From an uncultured Bacteroidales bacterium (GTDB lineage Bacteria; Bacteroidota; Bacteroidia; Bacteroidales; M50B96): 64,000 nt of DNA. Each line of letters begins with the position of its first letter. Positions within the stretch are counted from its first letter, which is position 1. Location: contig CAYLZH010000001.1 in assembly GCA_964388245.1 (NCBI GenBank), positions 774 to 64,773 of the forward strand. Reading direction: 5' to 3'. Under the pieces are notes generated by a model. It did not search any database and had not been told where the DNA came from. It worked only from the letters and a program-made list of their open reading frames with translations. Made by a program: the position numbers and the translations under genes. Of this stretch, positions 14,709-46,739 are shown one piece after another.

Positions 14709-14888
14709 TAATTTGTGGCAAAGATAGGGTTTAGATAAATTTGGGAATTAAGGACATGGGGGAATATTATTCTACCAAAGAGAGGTAAGCCTCGAGTCTC
14801 GAATCATAAGACCTCTATGTTTTAATATTCCTGCAGAATGGTGAAATCAATTGTTTATGTCATTCTGCACAAAGTAAGGACCTTTTTG

Positions 14889-15020
14889 TTATTCCAGATA
14901 TCCCGACACCTCAGATTTCAAAATAGGTAAAATACGAACAATTGTTCCCCAGATAATTTCATTATCAATCTTATCAGATCCATGGATTACACGATTCCTC
15001 TTACTAATAATACCTTGCAT
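14889..15020 (-). pseudogene. C-terminal remnant of a HepT/DUF86 (HEPN) toxin gene
   Basis: The reverse strand encodes MQGIISKRNRVIHGSDKIDNEIIWGTIVRILPILKSEVSGYLE* (43 aa). The R-x4-H core followed by ..D.EI.W..I...LP.LK matches the DUF86 C-terminal pattern. It is far shorter than the usual ~115-140 aa and no MNT partner is visible. Confidence 0.45.
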
Positions 15021-15172
15021 TTAAACTTCATTTTATGAGTCCACTCCGAAAAGTCCAATTTGACCAAATTCTTACTTTTCGGAGTACGCTCATTTTATTG
15101 ATTCAAAAATGAAAAGAACTGGTTCGTTTAAAAAGTCAAACTTTTCCTGCTTTCCAGAGTTTATCCATTTCA

Positions 15173-15877
15173 ATGAACTTTATAAATTATCTTTACACCA
15201 TGGTTGGAACCCTTATTAATGCAGGAGCAATTATTGTTGGAGGCAGTATCGGTATGTTGCTTCATGCTCGTTTGCCCAAACGATTTTCAAAAATTGTTTT
15301 TCAGGCCTTAGGATTGTTTACTGTTTTCCTGGGTGTTTCGATGGCTCTTAATACCAATGAATTTCTGATAATGATATTCAGTCTGTTGATTGGAAGTATC
15401 ATTGGCGAGGCACTTCGGCTGGAGGCTTGGTTAGACCGGTTGAGTGAAAACCTGAAAAAGAAATTTTCGATTAAAGGAGGCCGGTTTTCCGAGGGCCTGG
15501 TAACGGCATTCCTGCTGTTTTGTGTAGGATCTATGACCATTTTGGGTGCTATTGAGGAAGGTCTTGGCGACAAACCCAATCTTTTGCTTGTTAAATCACT
15601 TATGGATGGATTCTCATCAGTTGCTTTGGCAGCAGCAATGGGAATCGGTGTTATTTTTTCAATCATCCCTTTGGTCTTATACCAGGGAAGTTTAACACTT
15701 GCAGCAAGCTGGGCAGGTGATTATTTTTCAGAAGTAATAATAAACGAACTTACTGCTGTCGGAGGAATTATCCTGATTGGATTGGGCCTAAAGATACTTG
15801 AAATTAAAAACATCAGGGTTGTAAACATGTTGCCTACATTAGTGATTGTTGTATTTTTGGCCTGGCTTTTTACATAG
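15173..15877 (+). CDS. DUF554-family membrane protein (YdfK/YqgA-like)
   Basis: The N-terminus MVGTLINAGAIIVGGSIG and a glycine-rich six-helix pattern are characteristic of DUF554. Confidence 0.75.
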   Translation: MNFINYLYTMVGTLINAGAIIVGGSIGMLLHARLPKRFSKIVFQALGLFTVFLGVSMALNTNEFLIMIFSLLIGSIIGEALRLEAWLDRLSENLKKKFSIKGGRFSEGLVTAFLLFCVGSMTILGAIEEGLGDKPNLLLVKSLMDGFSSVALAAAMGIGVIFSIIPLVLYQGSLTLAASWAGDYFSEVIINELTAVGGIILIGLGLKILEIKNIRVVNMLPTLVIVVFLAWLFT

Positions 15878-15935
15878 GTAATCATGTACAGATTAGACAG
15901 GAATCAACAAGAATTAGTCTCAAAATATTGTTATT

Positions 15936-16784
15936 ATGAAAAAGATTAAGTCGGTTACAGCCACTACTTACCGGAAAATCGATGATCAATTGGTTGATCC
16001 GCACAAATCATCGTACCTGGAGTATGATGAGCATGGCAATGTTACTTGTGCATCACAATATCTTCACGACGGTGAAATTGAAAGCAAAACCACATCGAAG
16101 TATAATGAGCAAAATCAGGTAGTAGAACAAACCGAGTATTTTACTGAAGACGAGATAAGCGAAAATGCTATATACGAAAGAAACGACAAAGGTCAGGTGG
16201 AACGAATAAAAAAATCATATGCCGATGGATCGGAGTCAATAATCAAATATGATCGAAATGAAAAGCATTTGACCATAACAACCATCGACGAAGATGAGGA
16301 ACTCGAAGAGAGAGAAATTTTGCAATTCGATGAAAATGATCGTTTAATACTGAAAGAAATTTACGATTATGACAATAAGCTTCAGGAAAAATATAAAATT
16401 GTTTTTGATGAAAAAGGGCACCTGATAAGGCAGGATGAATTTACAAATGCCGGTATGTTTTCACTATCGTCGGAATTAACTTACGATGAAGACGGAAGGG
16501 TTCTTAGCCAGGTAAGCTACAATAACCAGAAAGAGTTAACACATAAAATCATGTTTACATACGACGATAGAGGCCGGGTTGTAAAGCAACAAGTGAGTAA
16601 TGCTTACATTATTTCGTCGAAGTATGATGATGAAAACCATACACAAACTGAAAAAAGGATTAATGCACAGGGTATTGTCGATATGGAGAAATTTTCGAAA
16701 TTCGATGAGAATGGAAATATCCTTGAAGAATACGAAGGACTTACCGTAATCCGCTATGAATATGAGTTTTTCGATGAAAAGTAG
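15936..16784 (+). CDS. Hypothetical cytoplasmic protein built from YD-like repeats
   Basis: Repeats of Y-(D/N)-E-x-G-x-(V/L) occur about every 22-25 aa (YDEHGNV, YDEDGRVL, YDDRGRVV, FDEKGHLI, FDENGNIL). No signal peptide. It is a paralogue of 47581..48636. Confidence 0.5.
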   Translation: MKKIKSVTATTYRKIDDQLVDPHKSSYLEYDEHGNVTCASQYLHDGEIESKTTSKYNEQNQVVEQTEYFTEDEISENAIYERNDKGQVERIKKSYADGSESIIKYDRNEKHLTITTIDEDEELEEREILQFDENDRLILKEIYDYDNKLQEKYKIVFDEKGHLIRQDEFTNAGMFSLSSELTYDEDGRVLSQVSYNNQKELTHKIMFTYDDRGRVVKQQVSNAYIISSKYDDENHTQTEKRINAQGIVDMEKFSKFDENGNILEEYEGLTVIRYEYEFFDEK

Positions 16785-37794: not shown

Positions 37795-38481
37795 ATGAAA
37801 GAACTGTTTGAAGCTTCATTTTCGGCCATTAACATAATCCCTACTGTATTACTGGTACTATCTCTCATTTATTGGCTCATAGTTATCTTTGGCATTTTCG
37901 ATCTCGATACCGTGGATCTTGATGTGGAGGCGGACGTTGATATTGATGTAGATGTAGAAGCAGACATTGACCTTGATGCCGATGCAGACCTTGATGCTGA
38001 TAGTGAAATAAGCGTAAGTGGTTCGGTTCTGTGGCTCAACTCAGTGTTATCGTTTTTCAATATTGGTCGTGTACCAGTTATGATTGTCGTTAGTTTCTTT
38101 TCTCTTTCACTTTGGATTATTTCCGTAATGCTGAATCATTGGCTGAGTAATACATCTTTTCTGATTTCTTTTATACTTCTTATACCAAATATGGTGGCAA
38201 GTTTATTTGTGGCCAAAATCATTACTATTCCGTTTGTTAAGGTTTTTAAGAAGGCCAACGAAATTCAAAACAATACAGGTTTGGAAGGTAAAATCTGCAA
38301 AGTGACCATTCCGGCCAGCCACGATAGGATGGGGCAGGCACTGATCCGAATTAATGGAGATACTTTTAATGTAAATATAAAAACCCAACCTGACGTTTCA
38401 CTGCAAGTAGGAGAGCAGGCGCTGGTAATCGAATATCAAAAAGACAATAAAATATATATAGTTGAACCTTATAAAGAATAA
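37795..38481 (+). CDS. YqiJ/DUF1449-like inner-membrane protein with C-terminal NfeD-like OB-fold domain
   Basis: An N-terminal TM helix is followed by an acidic tract (DLDTVDLDVEADVDIDVDVEADIDLDADADLDADSE) and further TM helices. The C-terminus is a beta-rich soluble domain (GLEGKICKVTIPASHDRMGQALIRINGDTFNVNIK...ALVIEY). Its stop lies 2 nt before the flotillin ATG. Confidence 0.7.
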   Translation: MKELFEASFSAINIIPTVLLVLSLIYWLIVIFGIFDLDTVDLDVEADVDIDVDVEADIDLDADADLDADSEISVSGSVLWLNSVLSFFNIGRVPVMIVVSFFSLSLWIISVMLNHWLSNTSFLISFILLIPNMVASLFVAKIITIPFVKVFKKANEIQNNTGLEGKICKVTIPASHDRMGQALIRINGDTFNVNIKTQPDVSLQVGEQALVIEYQKDNKIYIVEPYKE

Positions 38482-38483
38482 TC

Positions 38484-40619
38484 ATGGGAGCAAATGTAAT
38501 AGCTACTTCAACAGTATTACTGGTGATATTTTTTATCGCCATCGTGATACTCGTAATTAAAACCTACAAAAAGGCCGTCCAGGGCCAGGCCATTGTCCGA
38601 ACAGGCTCGGGTGGCACAAAAGTTTCCTTCAGTGGATTTTTTGTAATTCCCGTTCTGCACAAAATGGAAGTGATGGACATTACCATCAAAACAATCGTGA
38701 TTTCACGATTAGGGGTCGATGGGTTGATCTGTAAAGACAATATGCGGGCTGATATCAAGGTGTCGTTCTTTGTGCGGGTAAACAAAACCGTCGAGGATGT
38801 AATCCAGGTGGCACAAACGATCGGTTGCTACCGGGCTTCTTTCCAGGAATCGCTGGAAAATCTTTTCGATGCCAAATTCTCCGAGGCATTGAAAACCGTC
38901 GGTAAGCAGTTCGATTTTGTGGAGTTGTACAATTCGCGTGTGAAATTCAAAGAAGAGATTCTTCACACCATTGGCACAGACCTCAATGGCTATGTGCTCG
39001 ACGATTGTGCCATCGACTATCTCGAACAAACTCCTCTCGAAACTTTAAAAAGTGGTAATATTCTCGATGCTGAGGGTATAAAGAAAATTACCCAGCTTAC
39101 CGCCGAACAGATAGTGCTTGCCAACCAAATTGAACGCGACAAAGAAAAGACGATCAAGAAGCAGGACGTGGAAGCCCGGGAAACTATTCTTGAACTTGAA
39201 AAGCAACTGGCCGAAAAAGAGGAACAGCAAAAGCGCGAGATAGCATCGGCTGTAGCTCGTGAAGAAGCTGCCACTAAAAAAATTCAGGAAGAGCAACGAC
39301 AATTATCAGAGCAGGCCCGTATTGCTGCCGAAGAAGAAATCCAGATTGCCGAGCAGAATAAAGAGCGTCAGGTGATTGTGGCTGAGAAGAACAAGGAAAA
39401 GACCGAGGCCATCGAAACCGAGGCAGTACTGAAAGACAAGGAATTGGAAATTACCGAGCGCGAAAAAATCGTTACCCTGGCACAGATCGCAAAAGAGAAA
39501 TCGGTTGAGGAAGAAAAGAAAAACATCCAGGATGTGATCAAGCAGCGTGTAATGGTTGAAAAGGCAGTGGTTGAAGAAGAAGAAAAGATCAAGGATACCA
39601 AAGCTTTTGCCGGAGCAGAACGTGAGAAATCGGTTGCCATAAAATTGGCAGAAAAAGATGCTGAGGAAGGTTTGGTGAAAGAAATTAAAGCTGCTGAGGC
39701 TGATAAAACTGCTTCCGTTTTCAAAGCAGAACAAAAGCAGATTGAAGCAGAAGCTCAAAAACAAGCTTCATCGAAAGAAGCAGATGCGATAAAAATTATG
39801 GCCGAAGCAAAAGCTGCACAGGAGGCTGCCATTGGAATGGCTGAAGCACAGGTGATTGAGGCCAAAGCTGAAGCCAATCAAAAACAAGGTGAAGCCGAAG
39901 CTAATGTAATAGAGATGAAAGCAGTTGCCGAGGCTAAAGGAATAGAGGTTACCTCGGAGGCTGAAGCCGGAGCCACAAAGAAAATTGGTGTATCAGAAGC
40001 GGAGGTTATTAGTGCTAAAGCTGTTGCCGAAGAAGAAAAAGGTATGGCCGAAAATCGTGTGGCTCAAGAAAACTTTACCGTTGAGGCCAAGGGTATTGAA
40101 GAAAAAGCAGGAGCCATGAAGAAACTCGATGGTGTGGGCAAAGAGCACGAAGAATTCAAAATCCAGATTCAGAAAGAAAAAGATATCGAACTAGCCGAAA
40201 TCAATATTCAGAAAGATATCGCCGAGGCTCAGGCCAAAGTTATTGCCGAAGCCCTCAAAGCTGCTAATATCGATATCGTAGGCGGTGAAACCATGTTCTT
40301 TGAGCAAATAATGGGCGCCATCACCAAAGGTAAAAAAGTTGACCGTACTGTTGACAACAGCCATGTGTTAGCCGATTTAAAAGAACAGTTCTTCAACTCA
40401 GAAGGAGGCAAATCCTTCAAGGAAAATTTCCGTCACTTCATCGATCAGTTTGGCGTAAGTTCTGAAGACTTGAAAAACCTGAGCCTTTCGAATCTGCTAC
40501 TAAAGTTAAGCACAGAAGCTGATTCCGCTGAAGATAAAAGTATGTTCAGTGGTTTGCTCAACTCGGTAAGCTCTTTGGGACTGGCTGATAAAACTGCAAA
40601 AGAAATAGGTTTGGAATAA
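38484..40619 (+). CDS. Flotillin-family SPFH/Band-7 protein (YqiK-like) with long E/A/K-rich coiled coil
   Basis: An N-terminal TM helix (VLLVIFFIAIVILVI) is followed by an SPFH-like domain (QAIVRTGSGG..., MDITIKTIV..., ADIKVSFFVRV). About 350 aa of AEAEA/KEKE coiled coil follows, then a flotillin-type C-terminus. Confidence 0.85.
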   Translation: MGANVIATSTVLLVIFFIAIVILVIKTYKKAVQGQAIVRTGSGGTKVSFSGFFVIPVLHKMEVMDITIKTIVISRLGVDGLICKDNMRADIKVSFFVRVNKTVEDVIQVAQTIGCYRASFQESLENLFDAKFSEALKTVGKQFDFVELYNSRVKFKEEILHTIGTDLNGYVLDDCAIDYLEQTPLETLKSGNILDAEGIKKITQLTAEQIVLANQIERDKEKTIKKQDVEARETILELEKQLAEKEEQQKREIASAVAREEAATKKIQEEQRQLSEQARIAAEEEIQIAEQNKERQVIVAEKNKEKTEAIETEAVLKDKELEITEREKIVTLAQIAKEKSVEEEKKNIQDVIKQRVMVEKAVVEEEEKIKDTKAFAGAEREKSVAIKLAEKDAEEGLVKEIKAAEADKTASVFKAEQKQIEAEAQKQASSKEADAIKIMAEAKAAQEAAIGMAEAQVIEAKAEANQKQGEAEANVIEMKAVAEAKGIEVTSEAEAGATKKIGVSEAEVISAKAVAEEEKGMAENRVAQENFTVEAKGIEEKAGAMKKLDGVGKEHEEFKIQIQKEKDIELAEINIQKDIAEAQAKVIAEALKAANIDIVGGETMFFEQIMGAITKGKKVDRTVDNSHVLADLKEQFFNSEGGKSFKENFRHFIDQFGVSSEDLKNLSLSNLLLKLSTEADSAEDKSMFSGLLNSVSSLGLADKTAKEIGLE

Positions 40620-40626
40620 TTTGTAA

Positions 40627-40798
40627 ACGCAGAGACACAGAGACGCAGAGGAATTGTTAGTGTCCTCTGTGTCTCTATCGTGCAACTTCGTGATAAAACT
40701 ATTTCACTCTGTTTCACAAAGAACCACAGAGTTTCAAAAAGAAATATGAATCAATTCAAAGTATTAAAGTCCTTCTCTGCACCTCTGTATCTCTACGT
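40627..40798. mobile_element. MITE-like 172-bp element with ~24-bp terminal inverted repeats made of (A/G)CNCAGAG units
   Basis: The left end is acgcagagacacagagacgcagag (from 40627). The reverse complement of the right end (40798 back to 40775) is acgtagagatacagaggtgcagag, 20/24 identical by my hand alignment. TA flanks both ends. An internal 14-bp hairpin joins 40639-40652 and 40663-40676. Confidence 0.5.
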
Positions 40799-40812
40799 TA
40801 AAACAATAAACA

Positions 40813-43800
40813 ATGTCGTTGGAAGAAAAAAATAACATACAGGAAGCAATGAGTTCGGGTGTAGGACTCGAACAGGGAACTTATGAGATAATCCGAAACC
40901 GTTTGCTGGCCCAGGGCAAGGACTTGTACACCCGTCTTGGTAAGCTGAACGAAGAGCGCAAGCGTGTGTTTGGGGCTGTGGCAACCCAGCTATTGGCAAC
41001 CGAGCGCGTTACGACCGATAACAACTGCGTGCCGGTCGACATGTTCGCCTTCGACCATTCCTTCCTCTTTGGCTATAATGTGCTGATAGGCTTGAAAAAG
41101 GAGGTGGATATCTCGGATGTGTTCTCAATCTATGAGTATAGTGACCAAAACTTTCACCAGAAGGATTTGACTGTTTTGAGGGATGAAGAATTTCTGAAAG
41201 ATTTCAAAAATCTATACAAATATTACAAAGACACCAGGTTTCGAAAGTTTGCTTATATCGATTCGCACCTCTACATGGTGTTCCGTACAGGCAAGGGCAT
41301 GGCCGATGTCAAAACCTTTAAATGGCTGGTGGATGGTACAACGCTGGTTTATATTGACAACCGTAGCGACCATGAATATACCTACCCCAACCAACATGAG
41401 TTCGACTGGAAAAAGACCACACGTGATCAACAGCAAAAGGGGCAACACCCACATATTTCCATCGAAGATGAGGTATTTGTAGAAACCACCGAGGGTGACC
41501 TTACAATTAAAATTGAAAACAATACCGACACTGGGCAGGGAATTTTTGAGGAAGAGGTAGAACATAAAACCCAAACCCTCGACGATGCCGAAATCTATTA
41601 TGCCATCATCGACTCGTTGGTGGTGCTTAAAATAAAGCCTTACCATGAAGAAGATTTTCGCTACATCGTATATAACCAAAAGGTGAAGCAGGCCCACCGC
41701 ATCGACTCGCTGGAGGATAGCTGTGTGCTGTTGCCCGACGACCACGGGATTATCTTTGCCAATGGCTATTATTTACAAACAGGCGAGCTTAAGGTTTTCG
41801 ACCAGCAAATAGACGATATGTTGTTCGAAACCCGTATTGCTGCACCAAATGGAGAGGATTTTCTCTATGTCTTCTTCAATAAATCGACAGGAACTTACAT
41901 TCTTCTGTCGTACAATTTGATCGACCAAAAGGTGGACAAACCCATCGTTTGCCATGGTTATTCCATTTTCGATAATGGCGAATTGTGCTATTTCAAATCC
42001 GATGATGATCCAAAAAAACACCACGCCCTCCAGATTTGGCAAACGCCTTATTTAAGCCCCAATTATCAGCCTCCTGTGCAAAACGAAAGTTTTCTGTACA
42101 AGATCGGCAACAAGGATATTGTGAAGGGGATGGCCGAATGTAATGAGGTGCAGAACCTGATAATCAAGGACGAGACTTATGCCAATCTTTATTTCGATAT
42201 CCTGAAAAAGGCCACTGATGTGCTCGATTCCTATTATTGGATCGACAAGGAGGAATGTTTCCGTTTGGATGAACCATTGGCCGGCATAAAGGAAGCTTCG
42301 TCGATGGCTATTGGCGAGTACGAGAAAGTGGTGCAGATCAGGCAGTCGACACAAAAAGAATTCAACCGTGTTGTGGGCTTGTTTGATGAACTGAACCATT
42401 CCATCTTGGCTTCATCGCTCAAAGAGATTAACGATTTTGTAAACTTCCTTTCGGAGATCCGAAAGTTGCGGGGTGAGATTATTTCATTGAAAGACCTGCG
42501 CTATGTCGATCTGGATGCCGTGCAAAAGTACGAATCGCAGATGGTGGAACGCAACGAAAACCTGTCGATGGCTTGTGTTGAATTCCTTTTGAAAGAGGAA
42601 GCCCTGAACCCCTACCGCGAAAAAGTTGAGGCTGTGAACGACCGGGTTTCGGAAGTTGGCAAGGTGGTAGATGCTGATGAATTGGACGAGGAACTGGCCG
42701 CTATTGCCACCGAGTTGGAGATGCTCATCGAGATAGTGGGCAACCTGAAAATCCACGATGCCACTGAAACCACTCGCATCATCGATAATATCTCGGGCAT
42801 TTACGCCGAGTTTAATCTAAGTAAGGCGGCACTAAAAAATTGTAAGCGCGATCTGTTGGCCGTGGAAGGCAAGGCCGAGTTCAACTCGAAAATAAAACTC
42901 ATCCGCCAGGGCATTGTCAATTACATCGACCTGGCCGACTCGCCCGAAAAATGCGACGACTACCTGGCCAAGATAATGGTGCAGTTGGAAGAGTTGGAGG
43001 GAAAGTTCTCGGAGTTTCCCGAGTTTCTCGAAAAGCTGGCCACCGAGCGCGAGGAGAGCTACAATTCCTTTGAGTCGAAGAAAGTGAACCTGGTCGAAGA
43101 GCGCAACCGAAAGACTAATGCACTGTTCGCATCTGCGGAGCGCATTCTAAAGTCGATTGGCAACAAGGCATTTCAATATAAATCAACCAGCGAGATAAAC
43201 GGCTATTTTGCTTCCGATCCGATGATCGAAAAATTACGCTCGATCGTAGAGCAATTGATCGAGATGGAGGACAGCGTAAAGGCTGATGATATTCAAAGTC
43301 AGTTAAAAAGCATCCGCGAAGAATCCGTCCGTCAGTTAAAAGACAAGTCGGAGCTCTTCTTGCAGGGCGACAATGTGATCAGTTTTGGTCAGCACCATTT
43401 CCTGGTCAACACCCAACAATTGGGACTAACGATGGTGTACCGCAACAAGGAAATGTTCTATCACCTTACAGGAACAAACTTTTTCGAGACCGTTCAGGAC
43501 GAAGGTTTTGCTGCTACTCGTTTAGTTTGGGAACAAAGCCTGGTTTCGGAAAATCAAGATGTGTATCGGGGCGAGTACCTGGCATACAAAATATTCCAGA
43601 CAGCTAACTCGAACGAAGAAAACAGTGGTGGCCAAGGTGTCACCCTCAGTCAGTTAAAAGAATTTACGGATGAGGAGTTGATCGAATTTATTCGCAGATT
43701 CATGGCCACCCGCTACAACGAAGGCTATTTGAAAGGCGTACACGATGCGGATGCCGGAATCATTCTCCGATCTTTATTGAATATTCATTCGCATGCTGGA

Positions 43801-45735
43801 CTATTGCGATATGCAAGCCAAACCCGTGCTGCTGCCCAGTTCTTCTGGCAGGTAGGACTTCCGCAAAACGAAAAGCAAAACATAGTAAACAAACTGAATG
43901 GGGTTGGGGCTATTTTGGCCGTATTCCCTGACAGCAAAGAATTCCGATATATTGTGGATGGATTGGTAGAGAAAAATCATGAATATTCTCTACATCAGAA
44001 TATATTCCCTAACCTGAACATTGAAGGTGCCGCCAATTACCTTTTCGAAGAATTGATAGAGGACGAATCCTTTGTGATTGCGCCCGAGGCCTATCAACTG
44101 TTTGAATCCTTCCAGAAGTTCCTTTTTGAAAAAAAGGCGCGAAAACAATTTGCTGAATCCTTGGCAGCAGTTGAAGAACATTCTGAAACACGCTATAAGT
44201 TGATCTGCAATTGGGTGAATTCCTTCTTGCAACAATACAAATTGAAGAACCTGTTTCCGTATGCCTACGAGGTGGCCATGCTTATTTTCAATGGCACCCC
44301 AAACAAGGCGAAGGTTGTGGAAGTGTCGATCCATGAAGAGTTGAATGGCTTAAGTGGTTCGCACAGCATGATTGAGGAGGGCAAGCTCGAACTGCGCTAT
44401 GATAGTTTTATGCAATGCTTGTCTGATTACGAAAACACGGTAGTTAAGCAGTTCGGTCAGTTCGAGGGATTGAAAAAATCCCTGCTGAAAAACTATGAAT
44501 ACGAATTGCGATTGAACGAGTTTAAGCCTCGCATCCTGTCCTCCTTTGTTAGAAACCAGTTGATTAATGAAGTCTATCTACCTATTGTTGGTAGTAATCT
44601 AGCCAAGCAAATCGGTACGGCTGGCGAAAGCAAACGAACCGACCTGATGGGGCTTCTCCTTTTGATCTCTCCTCCGGGATATGGTAAAACCACTCTGATG
44701 GAATACATCGCCAATCGTCTCGGCATTATCTTTATGAAGGTGAACGGCCCGGCTCTTGGGCATAAAGTGGTATCGCTCGACCCGGCCGAGGCCAACAATG
44801 CGAGTGCCCGCGAAGAACTTGAAAAGCTCAACCTGGCCTTCGAGATGGGCGACAATGTGATGATTTACTTAGACGATATCCAGCACTGTAATCCTGAGCT
44901 TTTACAAAAGTTTATCAGCCTCTGCGATGCCCAACGAAAGATAGAGGGTGTGTATAAAGGCCGTGCCAAGACCTACGATTTCAAGGGTAAGAAAGTCTGT
45001 GTGGTAATGGCGGGAAATCCTTACACCGAGAGTGGCGAGAAATTCCAAATCCCGGATATGTTGGCCAACCGTGCCGACATTTACAACCTAGGGGATATTA
45101 TTGGCGACACCGAGGATGCCTTCAAGCAAAGCTATATCGAGAATGCCGTTACCTCCAACCTTGTGCTGGGCAAACTGGCAGCCAAAAGTGCCAAGGATAT
45201 TTATCCGCTCATCCGTTTAGCTGAAACGGGCAACAAGGAAGGATTGGAGTTCGAGGCTGATCATTCCCCTGCCGAATTGGGCGATTATGTCGAAATTCTG
45301 AAAAAGCTCTTTGCTGTTCGCGATGTCATCTATCGGGTAAACAAGGAGTACATTGCCTCGGCGGCCCAGTCGGACGAATTCCGAACAGAGCCAGCTTTCA
45401 AGCTCCAGGGCTCGTACCGCAACATGAACAAGATAGCCGAAAAGGTAGTGGCCGTGATGAACGACAAAGAATTGCAGACCCTTATCGAAGCCCACTACGA
45501 AAGCGAATCGCAAACATTAAGCAAGGACAGCGAGGCCAACATGCTCAAGTTCCGCGAGCTCATTGGCAAGCAAAGCAAAAAGGACAGCCTTCGATGGAAC
45601 GAAATCAAAGACACCTTCATGGAACACCAAAAAAGCAAGATGTACGGTGGCGATGCCGTTGGCCGTGTAGTAGCCGAAATGCAAAGCCTAAACCTGGGCT
45701 TGGAAGGTATTGCGAAGGTGATTGGGGGGAGGTAA
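40813..45735 (+). CDS. 1640-aa soluble protein of unknown function with a single C-terminal AAA+ ATPase core
   Basis: One long uninterrupted ORF. Walker A is PPGYGKTT (aa 1287-1294, nt 44671-44694). Walker B is VMIYLDD (aa 1349-1355, nt 44857-44877). VVMAGNP is sensor-1-like and LANRADIY is a possible Arg finger. I see no signal peptide or TM helix. The N-terminal ~420 aa are beta-rich and the central ~800 aa helical. Confidence 0.8.
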   Translation: MSLEEKNNIQEAMSSGVGLEQGTYEIIRNRLLAQGKDLYTRLGKLNEERKRVFGAVATQLLATERVTTDNNCVPVDMFAFDHSFLFGYNVLIGLKKEVDISDVFSIYEYSDQNFHQKDLTVLRDEEFLKDFKNLYKYYKDTRFRKFAYIDSHLYMVFRTGKGMADVKTFKWLVDGTTLVYIDNRSDHEYTYPNQHEFDWKKTTRDQQQKGQHPHISIEDEVFVETTEGDLTIKIENNTDTGQGIFEEEVEHKTQTLDDAEIYYAIIDSLVVLKIKPYHEEDFRYIVYNQKVKQAHRIDSLEDSCVLLPDDHGIIFANGYYLQTGELKVFDQQIDDMLFETRIAAPNGEDFLYVFFNKSTGTYILLSYNLIDQKVDKPIVCHGYSIFDNGELCYFKSDDDPKKHHALQIWQTPYLSPNYQPPVQNESFLYKIGNKDIVKGMAECNEVQNLIIKDETYANLYFDILKKATDVLDSYYWIDKEECFRLDEPLAGIKEASSMAIGEYEKVVQIRQSTQKEFNRVVGLFDELNHSILASSLKEINDFVNFLSEIRKLRGEIISLKDLRYVDLDAVQKYESQMVERNENLSMACVEFLLKEEALNPYREKVEAVNDRVSEVGKVVDADELDEELAAIATELEMLIEIVGNLKIHDATETTRIIDNISGIYAEFNLSKAALKNCKRDLLAVEGKAEFNSKIKLIRQGIVNYIDLADSPEKCDDYLAKIMVQLEELEGKFSEFPEFLEKLATEREESYNSFESKKVNLVEERNRKTNALFASAERILKSIGNKAFQYKSTSEINGYFASDPMIEKLRSIVEQLIEMEDSVKADDIQSQLKSIREESVRQLKDKSELFLQGDNVISFGQHHFLVNTQQLGLTMVYRNKEMFYHLTGTNFFETVQDEGFAATRLVWEQSLVSENQDVYRGEYLAYKIFQTANSNEENSGGQGVTLSQLKEFTDEELIEFIRRFMATRYNEGYLKGVHDADAGIILRSLLNIHSHAGLLRYASQTRAAAQFFWQVGLPQNEKQNIVNKLNGVGAILAVFPDSKEFRYIVDGLVEKNHEYSLHQNIFPNLNIEGAANYLFEELIEDESFVIAPEAYQLFESFQKFLFEKKARKQFAESLAAVEEHSETRYKLICNWVNSFLQQYKLKNLFPYAYEVAMLIFNGTPNKAKVVEVSIHEELNGLSGSHSMIEEGKLELRYDSFMQCLSDYENTVVKQFGQFEGLKKSLLKNYEYELRLNEFKPRILSSFVRNQLINEVYLPIVGSNLAKQIGTAGESKRTDLMGLLLLISPPGYGKTTLMEYIANRLGIIFMKVNGPALGHKVVSLDPAEANNASAREELEKLNLAFEMGDNVMIYLDDIQHCNPELLQKFISLCDAQRKIEGVYKGRAKTYDFKGKKVCVVMAGNPYTESGEKFQIPDMLANRADIYNLGDIIGDTEDAFKQSYIENAVTSNLVLGKLAAKSAKDIYPLIRLAETGNKEGLEFEADHSPAELGDYVEILKKLFAVRDVIYRVNKEYIASAAQSDEFRTEPAFKLQGSYRNMNKIAEKVVAVMNDKELQTLIEAHYESESQTLSKDSEANMLKFRELIGKQSKKDSLRWNEIKDTFMEHQKSKMYGGDAVGRVVAEMQSLNLGLEGIAKVIGGR

Positions 45736-45878: not shown

Positions 45879-46205
45879 ATGAAATTGCCATCAAAAGCAG
45901 TAATTGCAGATGAAAAGATCAAAGCATATCTTTTATCCTATCGTAGAAGAAATGATAAATCTAAATGGCTTGAAAGAGCGGGCTATAACCAGGAAAACTG
46001 GAGTATCTTAAAAGTGGACATACAGGATCAGCTTCTTCCTTTGGATGCTGTTCCTGTAGAAGAGAATGAATACGGACAGATGTACAAGTTAATTGGCAGA
46101 CTTACTGGCCCAAACGGTAAGACCTTATTGGCATGTACAATTTGGATGGTGGAAAATGAAACGAAGTTACTTAAGTTTATCACGATGTTCCCATTTAAAA
46201 ATTGA
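45879..46205 (+). CDS. DUF6883-like small protein (first gene of a putative two-gene toxin-antitoxin-like cassette)
   Basis: At 108 aa it shows the pattern KI.AYLLS....KSK.....GY...NW..L........YGQMYKLIGRLTGPNGKTL...T.W, which matches my recollection of DUF6883. The next gene starts 6 nt after its stop. Confidence 0.6.
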   Translation: MKLPSKAVIADEKIKAYLLSYRRRNDKSKWLERAGYNQENWSILKVDIQDQLLPLDAVPVEENEYGQMYKLIGRLTGPNGKTLLACTIWMVENETKLLKFITMFPFKN

Positions 46206-46211
46206 ATTGAT

Positions 46212-46454
46212 ATGAAATATGAATTATACAAGGAAGTAGTCTTACTAAAAGACATTCCTGAAAAAAAATTAAAAAAGGGAGATGTTGCAACTATTGTGGA
46301 ATACCATCCATCAAAAACATCCAGCGATGGATATACCTTGGAGGTATTCAATACAATTGGAGATACGATAGCGGTATTGTCAGTGTCCGAAGCAGAAATC
46401 GAAACATTAAAGAAAAGTGAGGTCTTTAGTGTACGTCCTTTAGAAGTGGCATAA
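46212..46454 (+). CDS. DUF4926-like small protein (second gene of the cassette)
   Basis: At 80 aa, MKYELYKEVVLLKDIPEKKLKKGDVATIVEY....DGYTLEVF...GDTIAVLSV matches the DUF4926 SH3-like pattern as I recall it. Confidence 0.65.
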   Translation: MKYELYKEVVLLKDIPEKKLKKGDVATIVEYHPSKTSSDGYTLEVFNTIGDTIAVLSVSEAEIETLKKSEVFSVRPLEVA

Positions 46455-46494: not shown

Positions 46495-46530
46495 AAACCA
46501 CGAGTGAGAACACTCGCGGCAGCGCGGGGG
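46495..46530 (+). repeat. Hairpin repeat copy R2, abutting the duplicated gene fragment
   Basis: In aaaccacgagtgagaacactcgcggcagcgcggggg the arms ccacgagtg and cactcgcgg pair at 8 of 9 positions. Its last base is the first base of the 210-nt duplicate. Confidence 0.65.
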
Positions 46531-46739
46531 ACAGCGAGACCAATATACTTAAGTTCCGCGAGCTCATCGGCAAGCAGACAGAAAAGGACAGCCTACGCTG
46601 GAACGAAATAAAAGACACCTTTATGCAACACCAAAAAAGCAAAATGTACGGCGGCGATGCTGTTGGAAGAGTTGTTGCAGAAATGGAAAGTTTAAATGTA
46701 GGGTTGGAAGGTATTGCAAAAGTGATTGGGGGGAGGTAG
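46530..46739 (+). pseudogene. Orphan diverged copy of the last 69 codons plus stop of the 1640-aa AAA+ gene
   Basis: It aligns without gaps to 45526..45735. By my hand count 177/210 nt and 62/69 aa are identical, with the stop at the same position. Of 29 differing sense codons, 22 are synonymous. No in-frame start codon lies at its 5' end, and an in-frame TAA lies at 46494-46496. Confidence 0.85.

Follow-up and report, generated by a model that had tools for sequence, protein, structure and literature searches.

The 64,000-nucleotide (nt) stretch of DNA analyzed here (hereafter, the window; positions 774 to 64,773 of contig CAYLZH010000001.1, GenBank assembly GCA_964388245.1, from an uncultured Bacteroidales bacterium) contains three co-oriented genes that encode, in this order, a YqiJ-like membrane protein, a flotillin of the SPFH (Band-7) family, and a large AAA+ ATPase (Table 1). 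This trio very probably belongs to an operon type that has already been published as a partner of the phage-shock-protein (PSP) network. The locus was singled out in an earlier reading of the sequence alone (hereafter, the original prediction), and a check of the open reading frames (ORFs) returned exactly the gene coordinates and gaps given there: the stop codon of the yqiJ-like gene is 2 nt away from the flotillin ATG, and the flotillin and ATPase genes are separated by a 193-nt spacer (40620-40812).

Table 1. Genes, protein regions and the spacer element of the trio (window coordinates; aa, amino acids; AF2, AlphaFold2; pLDDT, predicted local distance difference test)
Feature	Coordinates	Strand	Description and source
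yqiJ-like gene	37795-38481	+	228 aa; ORF
Flotillin gene	38484-40619	+	711 aa; ORF
Terminal inverted repeat element	40626-40799		174 bp, occupying most of the 193-nt spacer; ends are imperfect inverted repeats of 25 nt
Large AAA+ gene	40813-45735	+	1640 aa; ORF
Beta-propeller, within DUF3686	40987-42042	+	aa 59-410, ~26 strands; AF2 pLDDT 83, Foldseek
Long helical/coiled-coil region	42091-43356	+	aa 427-848 (~420 aa), includes DUF7902; AF2
Middle region	43375-44616	+	aa 855-1268; small beta-hairpin subdomain, then all-helical domain; AF2 pLDDT 81
AAA+ module	44621-45732	+	aa 1270-1640; alpha/beta core and helical lid; Pfam, AF2, Foldseek

The three proteins

Pfam identified three regions in the large protein: DUF3686 (aa 37-475, E=1.6e-187), DUF7902 (aa 596-679, E=1.9e-26), and a single AAA domain (1282-1402; AAA/AAA_5 region 1282-1407, with E=8.2e-6 for AAA_5). 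Its structure was modeled with AlphaFold2 from 41-sequence alignments (pLDDT 83 for the N-terminal part and 81 for the middle region together with the AAA+ module). In the models, a helix (aa 21-53) precedes a beta-propeller, and the Foldseek matches of this N-terminal domain are propellers of prolyl-oligopeptidase, WD40, clathrin terminal domain, and nucleoporin proteins (E of about 1e-6). The propeller is followed by a long helical arm and by a middle region that yielded no specific Foldseek match, the matches listed being AAA+ proteins. The C-terminal AAA+ module resembles RuvB, MoxR-type CbbQ/NorQ, dynein, Clp, and MCM (E of about 1e-5), and the Lon unfoldase is also among the closest folds. 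The model includes a pre-sensor-1 beta-hairpin, one of two structural marks of the MoxR/AAA_5 subfamily; the beta2-alpha2 segment, where the other mark, a helix-2 insert, would be expected, is a loop. A search of PDB sequences with the full-length protein produced only generic P-loop matches to p97/Cdc48, and neither this search nor Foldseek revealed a solved structure resembling the whole protein; a VWA partner, typical of MoxR, was not found in the examined loci. The protein contains no TM-like (transmembrane) segment (the maximum Kyte-Doolittle 19-mer score is 1.15), and has one AAA+ core, with SPPGYGKTT at 1286-1294 and YLDD at 1352-1355, in both respects as originally predicted.

All the motifs that are expected of an active AAA+ enzyme can be traced, namely, Walker A (SPPGYGKT, with K1292), Walker B (D1354-D1355), and sensor-1 (N1402), and R1420 and R1536, the latter located in the helical lid, are likely to be the Arg finger and sensor-2, respectively. 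Across 12 homologues, K1292, D1354/D1355, N1402, R1420, and R1536 do not vary. With all catalytic residues conserved and with both the core and the lid present in the model, the large protein qualifies as a predicted AAA+ ATPase. Two of the motifs are noncanonical: Walker A (44668-44694) has Ser in place of the first Gly, and Walker B (44860-44877) is of the form hhhhDD (YLDDIQH) rather than DE; both deviations are invariant, and Pseudomonas aeruginosa BacE (PA3728/PA14_16190), with which the large protein shares 41% identity over 1646 aa, has the identical DDIQH. The DUF3686 family comprises 734 clusters at 50% identity, in which the domain is N-terminal in proteins of 1600-2000 aa, the shorter entries resembling fragments; the large-protein family as a whole consists of more than 5000 sequence clusters.

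No match to the full-length flotillin was produced by default Pfam and NCBIfam scans, and a PDB search with its N-terminus returned nothing useful; residues 1-209 match Band_7 with E=1.5e-12. The protein consists of a single N-terminal hydrophobic segment, the SPFH/Band-7 domain, a long Ala/Glu-rich coiled coil, and a C-terminal extension, that is, it includes the TM, Band-7, and coiled-coil parts required by the published operon type. It is 31% identical to Escherichia coli YqiK over 444 residues (E=4e-48) and 46% identical to P. aeruginosa BacD over 638 aa, and is accordingly assigned by sequence similarity as a YqiK-type flotillin, orthologous to BacD/PaFlo3. E. coli YqiK has no sequence that aligns with the C-terminal extension, and is about 160 aa shorter than the window flotillin. 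Among 59 linked flotillins, the extension shows only moderate conservation (0.4-0.5) and thus offers no proof of a docking motif.

The YqiJ-like protein is predicted to contain about three TM segments (Kyte-Doolittle windows), with an acidic loop of D-x-D repeats at aa 37-70, and then a C-terminal beta domain. Default Pfam and NCBIfam scans gave no match, and the protein alone reached only E=0.02 against Pfam YqiJ_N, a family that is matched by 10 of 40 orthologues. A profile of the 40 orthologues aligns with E. coli YqiJ over nearly the full length (hhalign probability 96.8%, E=2.5e-10) and with P. aeruginosa BacC (E=1.9e-37); PGAP applies the name DUF1449 family protein both to the Hymenobacter orthologue and to E. 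coli YqiJ. These profile matches identify the protein as a short NfeD-type (DUF1449 family) membrane protein and a predicted orthologue of BacC. The D-x-D loop (37903-38004) reads DLDTVDLDVEADVDIDVDVEADIDLDADADLDAD; its pattern is kept in the consensus of the 40 orthologues, and the loop is far shorter in E. coli YqiJ. Binding of cations or polyamines by this loop is conceivable, and polyamine-synthesis genes recur beside the operon.

Conserved linkage and the PSP network

We scanned one genome per species, found at least 565 confirmed loci (the family being present in at least 565 species genomes), and kept 80 of these for the analysis of gene neighborhoods; represented among the kept loci are Bacteroidota, Planctomycetota, Verrucomicrobiota, Desulfobacterota, Clostridia, Omnitrophota, and Kiritimatiellota. 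Of the 66 loci whose sequence extends 3 kb or more upstream, 63 encode a flotillin homologue (37-65% identity) immediately before the ATPase and in the same orientation (the exceptions are L028, L030, and L048), and in seven loci with shorter upstream regions, the 3' part of the flotillin gene or the whole gene is found at the contig edge. The YqiJ-like gene precedes the flotillin gene in 55 loci, whereas the other flanking genes are unrelated between phyla. Thus, the linkage of the large protein to SPFH genes, the lack of which would have spoken against the original prediction, is decisively beyond chance across seven phyla, and the three genes form one conserved module, as had been proposed. 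The co-occurrence of the trio spans more than 10 phyla, and the trio is also found on the Pseudomonas fluorescens megaplasmid pQBR103, on a Hymenobacter plasmid, and on Streptomyces and Deinococcus replicons; altogether, 13 of 72,556 plasmid records matched, mostly megaplasmids or chromids. The closest relative is a locus from a Bacteroidales metagenome-assembled genome (L081), whose proteins are, in gene order, 64%, 89%, and 78% identical to those of the trio.

Linkage of this extent bears on the name under which the large protein is usually filed. As stated in the original prediction, homologues are automatically labeled as DNA repair ATPases, in NCBI naming and in the Pfam description of DUF3686. 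On this account, the protein would act in DNA repair and its adjacency to flotillin would be incidental, and weak sequence and fold similarity to RuvB as well as a LexA-family regulator beside some operons could be cited in favor of the name. The similarity to RuvB amounts to 23.4 bits against a cut-off of 282 bits for the NCBIfam model, however, and is confined to the P-loop region (aa 1270-1317); Pfam and NCBIfam scans detected no DNA-binding, nuclease, or helicase domain; and a link to membrane proteins in 63 of 66 loci cannot be incidental. The literature searched contains no support for the label, nor anything on DUF3686/PF12458, and we consider this explanation to be close to refuted. 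The labels 'DNA repair ATPase' and 'ATPase involved in DNA repair' are carried by thousands of entries without experimental or domain-level basis; the JGI name 'MoxR-like ATPase' is nearer to the fold evidence.

In Bacteroidota, the trio is commonly the distal part of a longer array. Clustering of the neighboring ORFs brought out three further conserved genes: pspA (PspA_IM30, E=3.9e-41), present in 22 loci of Bacteroidota; a CesT_Tir_1 gene (E=4.2e-54), in 18; and a gene for a divergently transcribed helix-turn-helix regulator fused to a protease domain (HTH_3+Peptidase_S24), in 20; the usual order is the divergent HTH+S24 repressor, followed by CesT_Tir_1, PspA, YqiJ, flotillin, and ATPase, and about 20 Bacteroidota loci have it in full. 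A phospholipase D (PLD)-family gene is present in six loci. In four Bacteroidota loci (L002, L007, L034, and L050), the ATPase gene is directly followed by genes for DUF4178, a lipoprotein, DUF350, and spermine synthase, and on pQBR103 (L083, 1034-6158) the trio is preceded by yjfI-pspA-rhomboid-DUF2491-DUF350-DUF1190-glutathionylspermidine synthase. These arrangements indicate that two PSP partner modules, which are separate in the published survey of the network (Ravi et al. 2024, mSystems, PMC11237479; preprint 2020), are physically joined to the trio.

That survey describes an operon of YqiJ/YuaF, Band-7/flotillin, and a beta-propeller/coiled-coil AAA+ protein as a PspA partner, along with an abbreviated three-gene form, and its Table S3 lists a Dokdonia donghaensis example (ANH61663.1) with the identical gene order (PMC11237479). 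Protein architectures and gene order are the same as those in the window, the published description being purely computational. The full published form additionally includes a cesT/Tir-pspA dyad and a cHTH+protease regulator that the window locus does not have; searches with the PspA, CesT, S24, and PLD clusters gave no tblastn match in the window, and with no cesT or pspA gene there, we classify the locus as the abbreviated form. E. coli yqiJ-yqiK and Bacillus subtilis yuaF-floT represent the two-gene NfeD-flotillin core, like the closely spaced pair in the window, and no ATPase gene is present at the E. coli locus, where yqiK is followed by the sibD/ibsD loci.

The P. aeruginosa homologue of the large protein (P0273; 1746 aa) belongs to a 90%-identity cluster of 3222 member sequences. 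Its locus has the order DUF2170-PspA-213 aa-688 aa-DUF3686-PLDc_2-YaeQ-RecJ-LasB, which matches PA3732 to PA3724, so that the genes are those denoted bacA to bacF. By gene order and sequence similarity, the window trio is therefore assigned as the orthologues of bacC-bacD-bacE (PA3730-PA3728), in the same order. The bacABCDEF genes (the 'biofilm-associated cluster', PA3732-PA3727) are co-transcribed, as demonstrated by RT-PCR for all six genes; the BacB-F proteins are 6-13-fold up in a bacA mutant; and a sigma-54 promoter/binding site was proposed upstream of bacA (Wallart et al. 2024, PMC10948618). Compared to the window locus, the bac operon adds BacA (DUF2170/YjfI), BacB (PspA), BacF (PLD), and the proposed sigma-54 site. 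In strain PA14, BacD (PA14_16180) is the SPFH protein PaFlo3, encoded in an operon with the short NfeD protein PA14_16160, and PA14_16190 (BacE) belongs to the top genes repressed by RsmA. A set of 17 genes that are up-regulated across all phage-infected P. aeruginosa samples includes PA3728-PA3732. The mutant phenotypes known from the bac cluster are those of bacA, bacB and, weakly, bacD.

Two statements of the original prediction are changed by these reports. An ATPase partner of NfeD-SPFH gene pairs, of which none was said to have been described, is present in the comparative genomic survey (PMC11237479), and its gene is co-transcribed with the pair in P. aeruginosa (PMC10948618), so that the claim of novelty is superseded by published comparative genomics and the work on the bac operon. 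The assertion that the module has no characterized function stands with regard to biochemistry and falls with regard to the operon itself, which is already published. The window locus is, then, a further, abbreviated copy of a known system whose key enzyme stays biochemically uncharacterized; it adds a clean three-gene example to that system, and links the computational description of Ravi et al. to the genetically tractable bacABCDEF cluster, where BacE is directly testable. A role of the locus in stress response, proposed in the original prediction, is backed by the repeated linkage to pspA and by the expression data on the Pseudomonas orthologues.

A side observation concerns the regulators. 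In three loci from Verrucomicrobiota and Kiritimatiellota (L039, L043, and L064), a Phage_CP76 (CII-like) regulator (E=4.4e-7) is encoded beside the yqiJ-like gene, taking the place of the HTH+S24 (LexA-family) regulator of Bacteroidota; the operon seems to have acquired phage-repressor-like regulators of more than one kind.

Candidate mechanism and alternatives

As a whole, the locus is best explained as an abbreviated envelope-stress operon of the PspA network that has a remodeling role, an explanation for which we consider the chances to be evenly balanced. For the mechanism in particular, in which ATP would drive the remodeling of flotillin and/or PspA assemblies when the envelope is stressed, our confidence is lower, and the proposal is a tentative one. 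Under this scheme, YqiJ and flotillin would build a scaffold at the cytoplasmic face of the membrane, and the AAA+ protein, probably a hexamer with propellers on long helical arms, would dock on this scaffold via the propeller and the coiled-coil arm. ATP hydrolysis might then assemble, remodel, or recycle polymers of flotillin and/or PspA (which is ESCRT-III-like) during membrane stress, by analogy with the action of Vps4 on ESCRT-III; in the window genome, the ATPase would work together with a PspA from another locus, or flotillin would be its only target. Recruitment of the soluble AAA+ protein by the flotillin scaffold had been suggested in the original prediction and is a reasonable proposition that agrees with the published one; interaction among the trio proteins and with PspA is inferred from synteny and from the co-transcription in Pseudomonas.

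Partnerships of SPFH proteins with AAA+ proteins, such as HflK/C-FtsH, are established. Both ESCRT-III/Vps4 and HflK/C-FtsH combine a polymer- or cage-forming membrane scaffold with an AAA+ motor, and the likeness of the trio to these systems is a functional analogy only. The large protein differs from Vps4 in that it lacks the MIT domain and the features of the classical clade, has the pre-sensor-1 hairpin, and is closest to RuvB/MoxR-type folds; it differs from HflK/C-FtsH in that it has neither a protease domain nor a TM segment.

Several observations weigh against the remodeling proposal. The substrate, be it flotillin, PspA, or another protein, is a guess from gene context, and the pspA, cesT, and S24 regulator genes are absent from the 64-kb window. 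Deletion of PaFlo3 lowers biofilm formation by only about 20%. The Ser in Walker A and the DD in Walker B imply that the ATPase kinetics may be unusual. Reading of the sequence revealed no aromatic pore-loop motif after beta2, and no MIT-like domain was found in the large protein; threading in the manner of Vps4 is thus not indicated.

The pore region is also relevant to a different proposal, membrane-protein quality control akin to that by HflK/C-FtsH or prohibitin-m-AAA, in which a flotillin microdomain would confine damaged proteins and the AAA+ protein would extract or refold them. The established partnerships between SPFH proteins and AAA+ proteases lend it plausibility, as do the Clp and Lon unfoldases among the closest folds and the beta-propeller, a plausible client-binding domain. 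Furthermore, flotillin/NfeD microdomains of Staphylococcus aureus are reported to stabilize unfolded proteins (PMC11222466). Nevertheless, the protein has no protease domain and no TM anchor, an aromatic-hydrophobic pore-loop motif was not seen, the fold is matched best by RuvB and MoxR-type remodelers, not by threading unfoldases, and the recurrent partner is PspA, not a protease. We regard quality control as improbable.

The remodeling proposal has a more specific form, namely, that the DUF3686 ATPase is the long-missing enzyme that uses ATP to remodel PspA/ESCRT-III-like polymers and/or flotillin cages in bacteria, that is, a functional counterpart of Vps4 from a different AAA+ lineage, in which a propeller on a coiled-coil arm replaces MIT. 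We view this form as unlikely. Ravi et al. noted that the regulation of assembly is unexplained for PspA homologues with which no AAA+ ATPase is associated (PMC11237479). For the dynamic control of bacterial flotillin and PspA assemblies in general, the widespread DUF3686 family is a strong candidate. If the ATPase is indeed such a counterpart of Vps4, induction by phage would reflect a membrane-repair or infection-containment role.

Composition, cassettes, and the defense alternative

The module had been described as G+C-richer than its flanks and its context as fitting a mobile stress-response or defense-type element. The first statement holds, with G+C of 0.425-0.462 over 38-46 kb against 0.36-0.41 in the flanks; the second is supported for stress, whereas its defense and mobile components derive mainly from a separate neighboring cassette. 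The compositional anomaly is concentrated in the large gene, with G+C at third codon positions (GC3) of 0.57 compared to 0.37 +/- 0.03 for 35 other window genes (z=6.9); the flotillin gene is intermediate (0.44), and yqiJ is typical of the window (0.345). In most of the 62 other loci, the GC3 of the large gene follows the host genome (median z of about 1). In L081, it is 0.60, the highest within the contig, and given this shared bias, the deviation should be older than the split of L081 and the window genome; it could stem from an old transfer or from codon selection. A recent swap-in of the large gene from a GC-richer donor, which we also considered, is weakened by the value in L081 and by the GC3 of 0.51 in a relic gene end that is described next.

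A second copy of the final 210 nt of the large gene (45525-45734) is present at 46529-46738 with 85% identity, which substantiates the gene-end duplication noted in the original prediction. The copy encodes the last 69 residues in frame to the stop (63 of 69 identical), and 25 of its 33 differences are at third codon positions; this excess, along with the intact frame, suggests that the copy is a relic of a once-functional gene end. Between the two gene ends lie DUF6883 and DUF4926 genes (45879-46454), bracketed by 35-nt repeats, so that the toxin-antitoxin (TA)-like pair previously noted there is explained as an inserted cassette. At the same site (14726-16776), L081 has an AbiLi-like ATPase (E=7.6e-63) and a PDC-M38B-like protein, whose genes lie between duplicated gene ends of 136 nt that are 94% identical. 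The 3' end of the large gene is thus a recurrent site of cassette insertion, seen in two of 82 loci, the window and L081. No recombinase was found near these cassettes. Likewise, searches for tRNA genes in the window, for direct repeats flanking the trio, and for phage copies of the DUF3686 region were negative, and none of the four downstream ORFs with Pfam matches contains an integrase domain.

Several of these features, taken with the phage data from P. aeruginosa, could be read as signs of anti-phage defense or abortive infection (Abi), whereby flotillin/YqiJ would act as the membrane sensor of infection and the response would be carried out by the large ATPase, together with the PLD partner where there is one. 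The orthologous operon was induced in every phage-infected sample, but the same would be expected of a phage-shock response to membrane stress. TA- and Abi-type cassettes adjoin the large gene in the window and in L081, and yet are separate insertions between duplicated gene ends; being cargo at a lineage-specific insertion site, such defense-like neighbors are no evidence that the trio itself is a defense system. The anomalous GC3 of the large gene in the window is set against the agreement with the host genome in most loci. About five of 149 immediate neighbors are strongly defense-specific matches, a count for which there is no baseline, a PLD-family gene matching DrmC models accompanies the operon in some genomes, and LexA/CI-like or CII-like regulators flank it. 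On the other side, no model in PADLOC-DB 2.0 matches any trio protein, only generic P-loop matches being produced (mad8, 2.9e-4; IetA, 4.6e-3), in disagreement with the suggested defense-type assignment; housekeeping genes surround the trio in the window (upstream, thiolase-like, alpha/beta hydrolase, and OYE genes; downstream, ABC-2 transporter and DnaJ genes); and the gene appears to be widespread in P. aeruginosa, judging from the size of its cluster. On balance, a dedicated defense function of the trio has a low probability.

The spacer between the flotillin and ATPase genes has peculiarities of its own. The original prediction of a 172-bp inverted-repeat element is borne out by an element of nearly this size with imperfect repeats: the termini (40626-40650 and 40775-40799) match at 21 of 25 positions, with an alignment score of 34 compared to 12.2 +/- 2.5 (maximum 24) in 500 shuffles, and an inner hairpin of 12-14 nt is located at 40631-40676. 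There is no second copy within the window, so mobility of this element is unproven. A scan for sigma-70 promoters and terminators, with models that do not include Bacteroidota promoters, performed no better than on shuffled sequences. The same spacer in L081 (9341-9939) contains similar CAGAG/CTCTG-rich repeats and a 97-aa ORF. The flotillin-to-ATPase spacer appears to tolerate or attract insertions; it has gained 0.5-2.4 kb of small ORFs in about 15 other loci, and one cluster among these inserts (c11) is DUF559-like, as judged by eye only.

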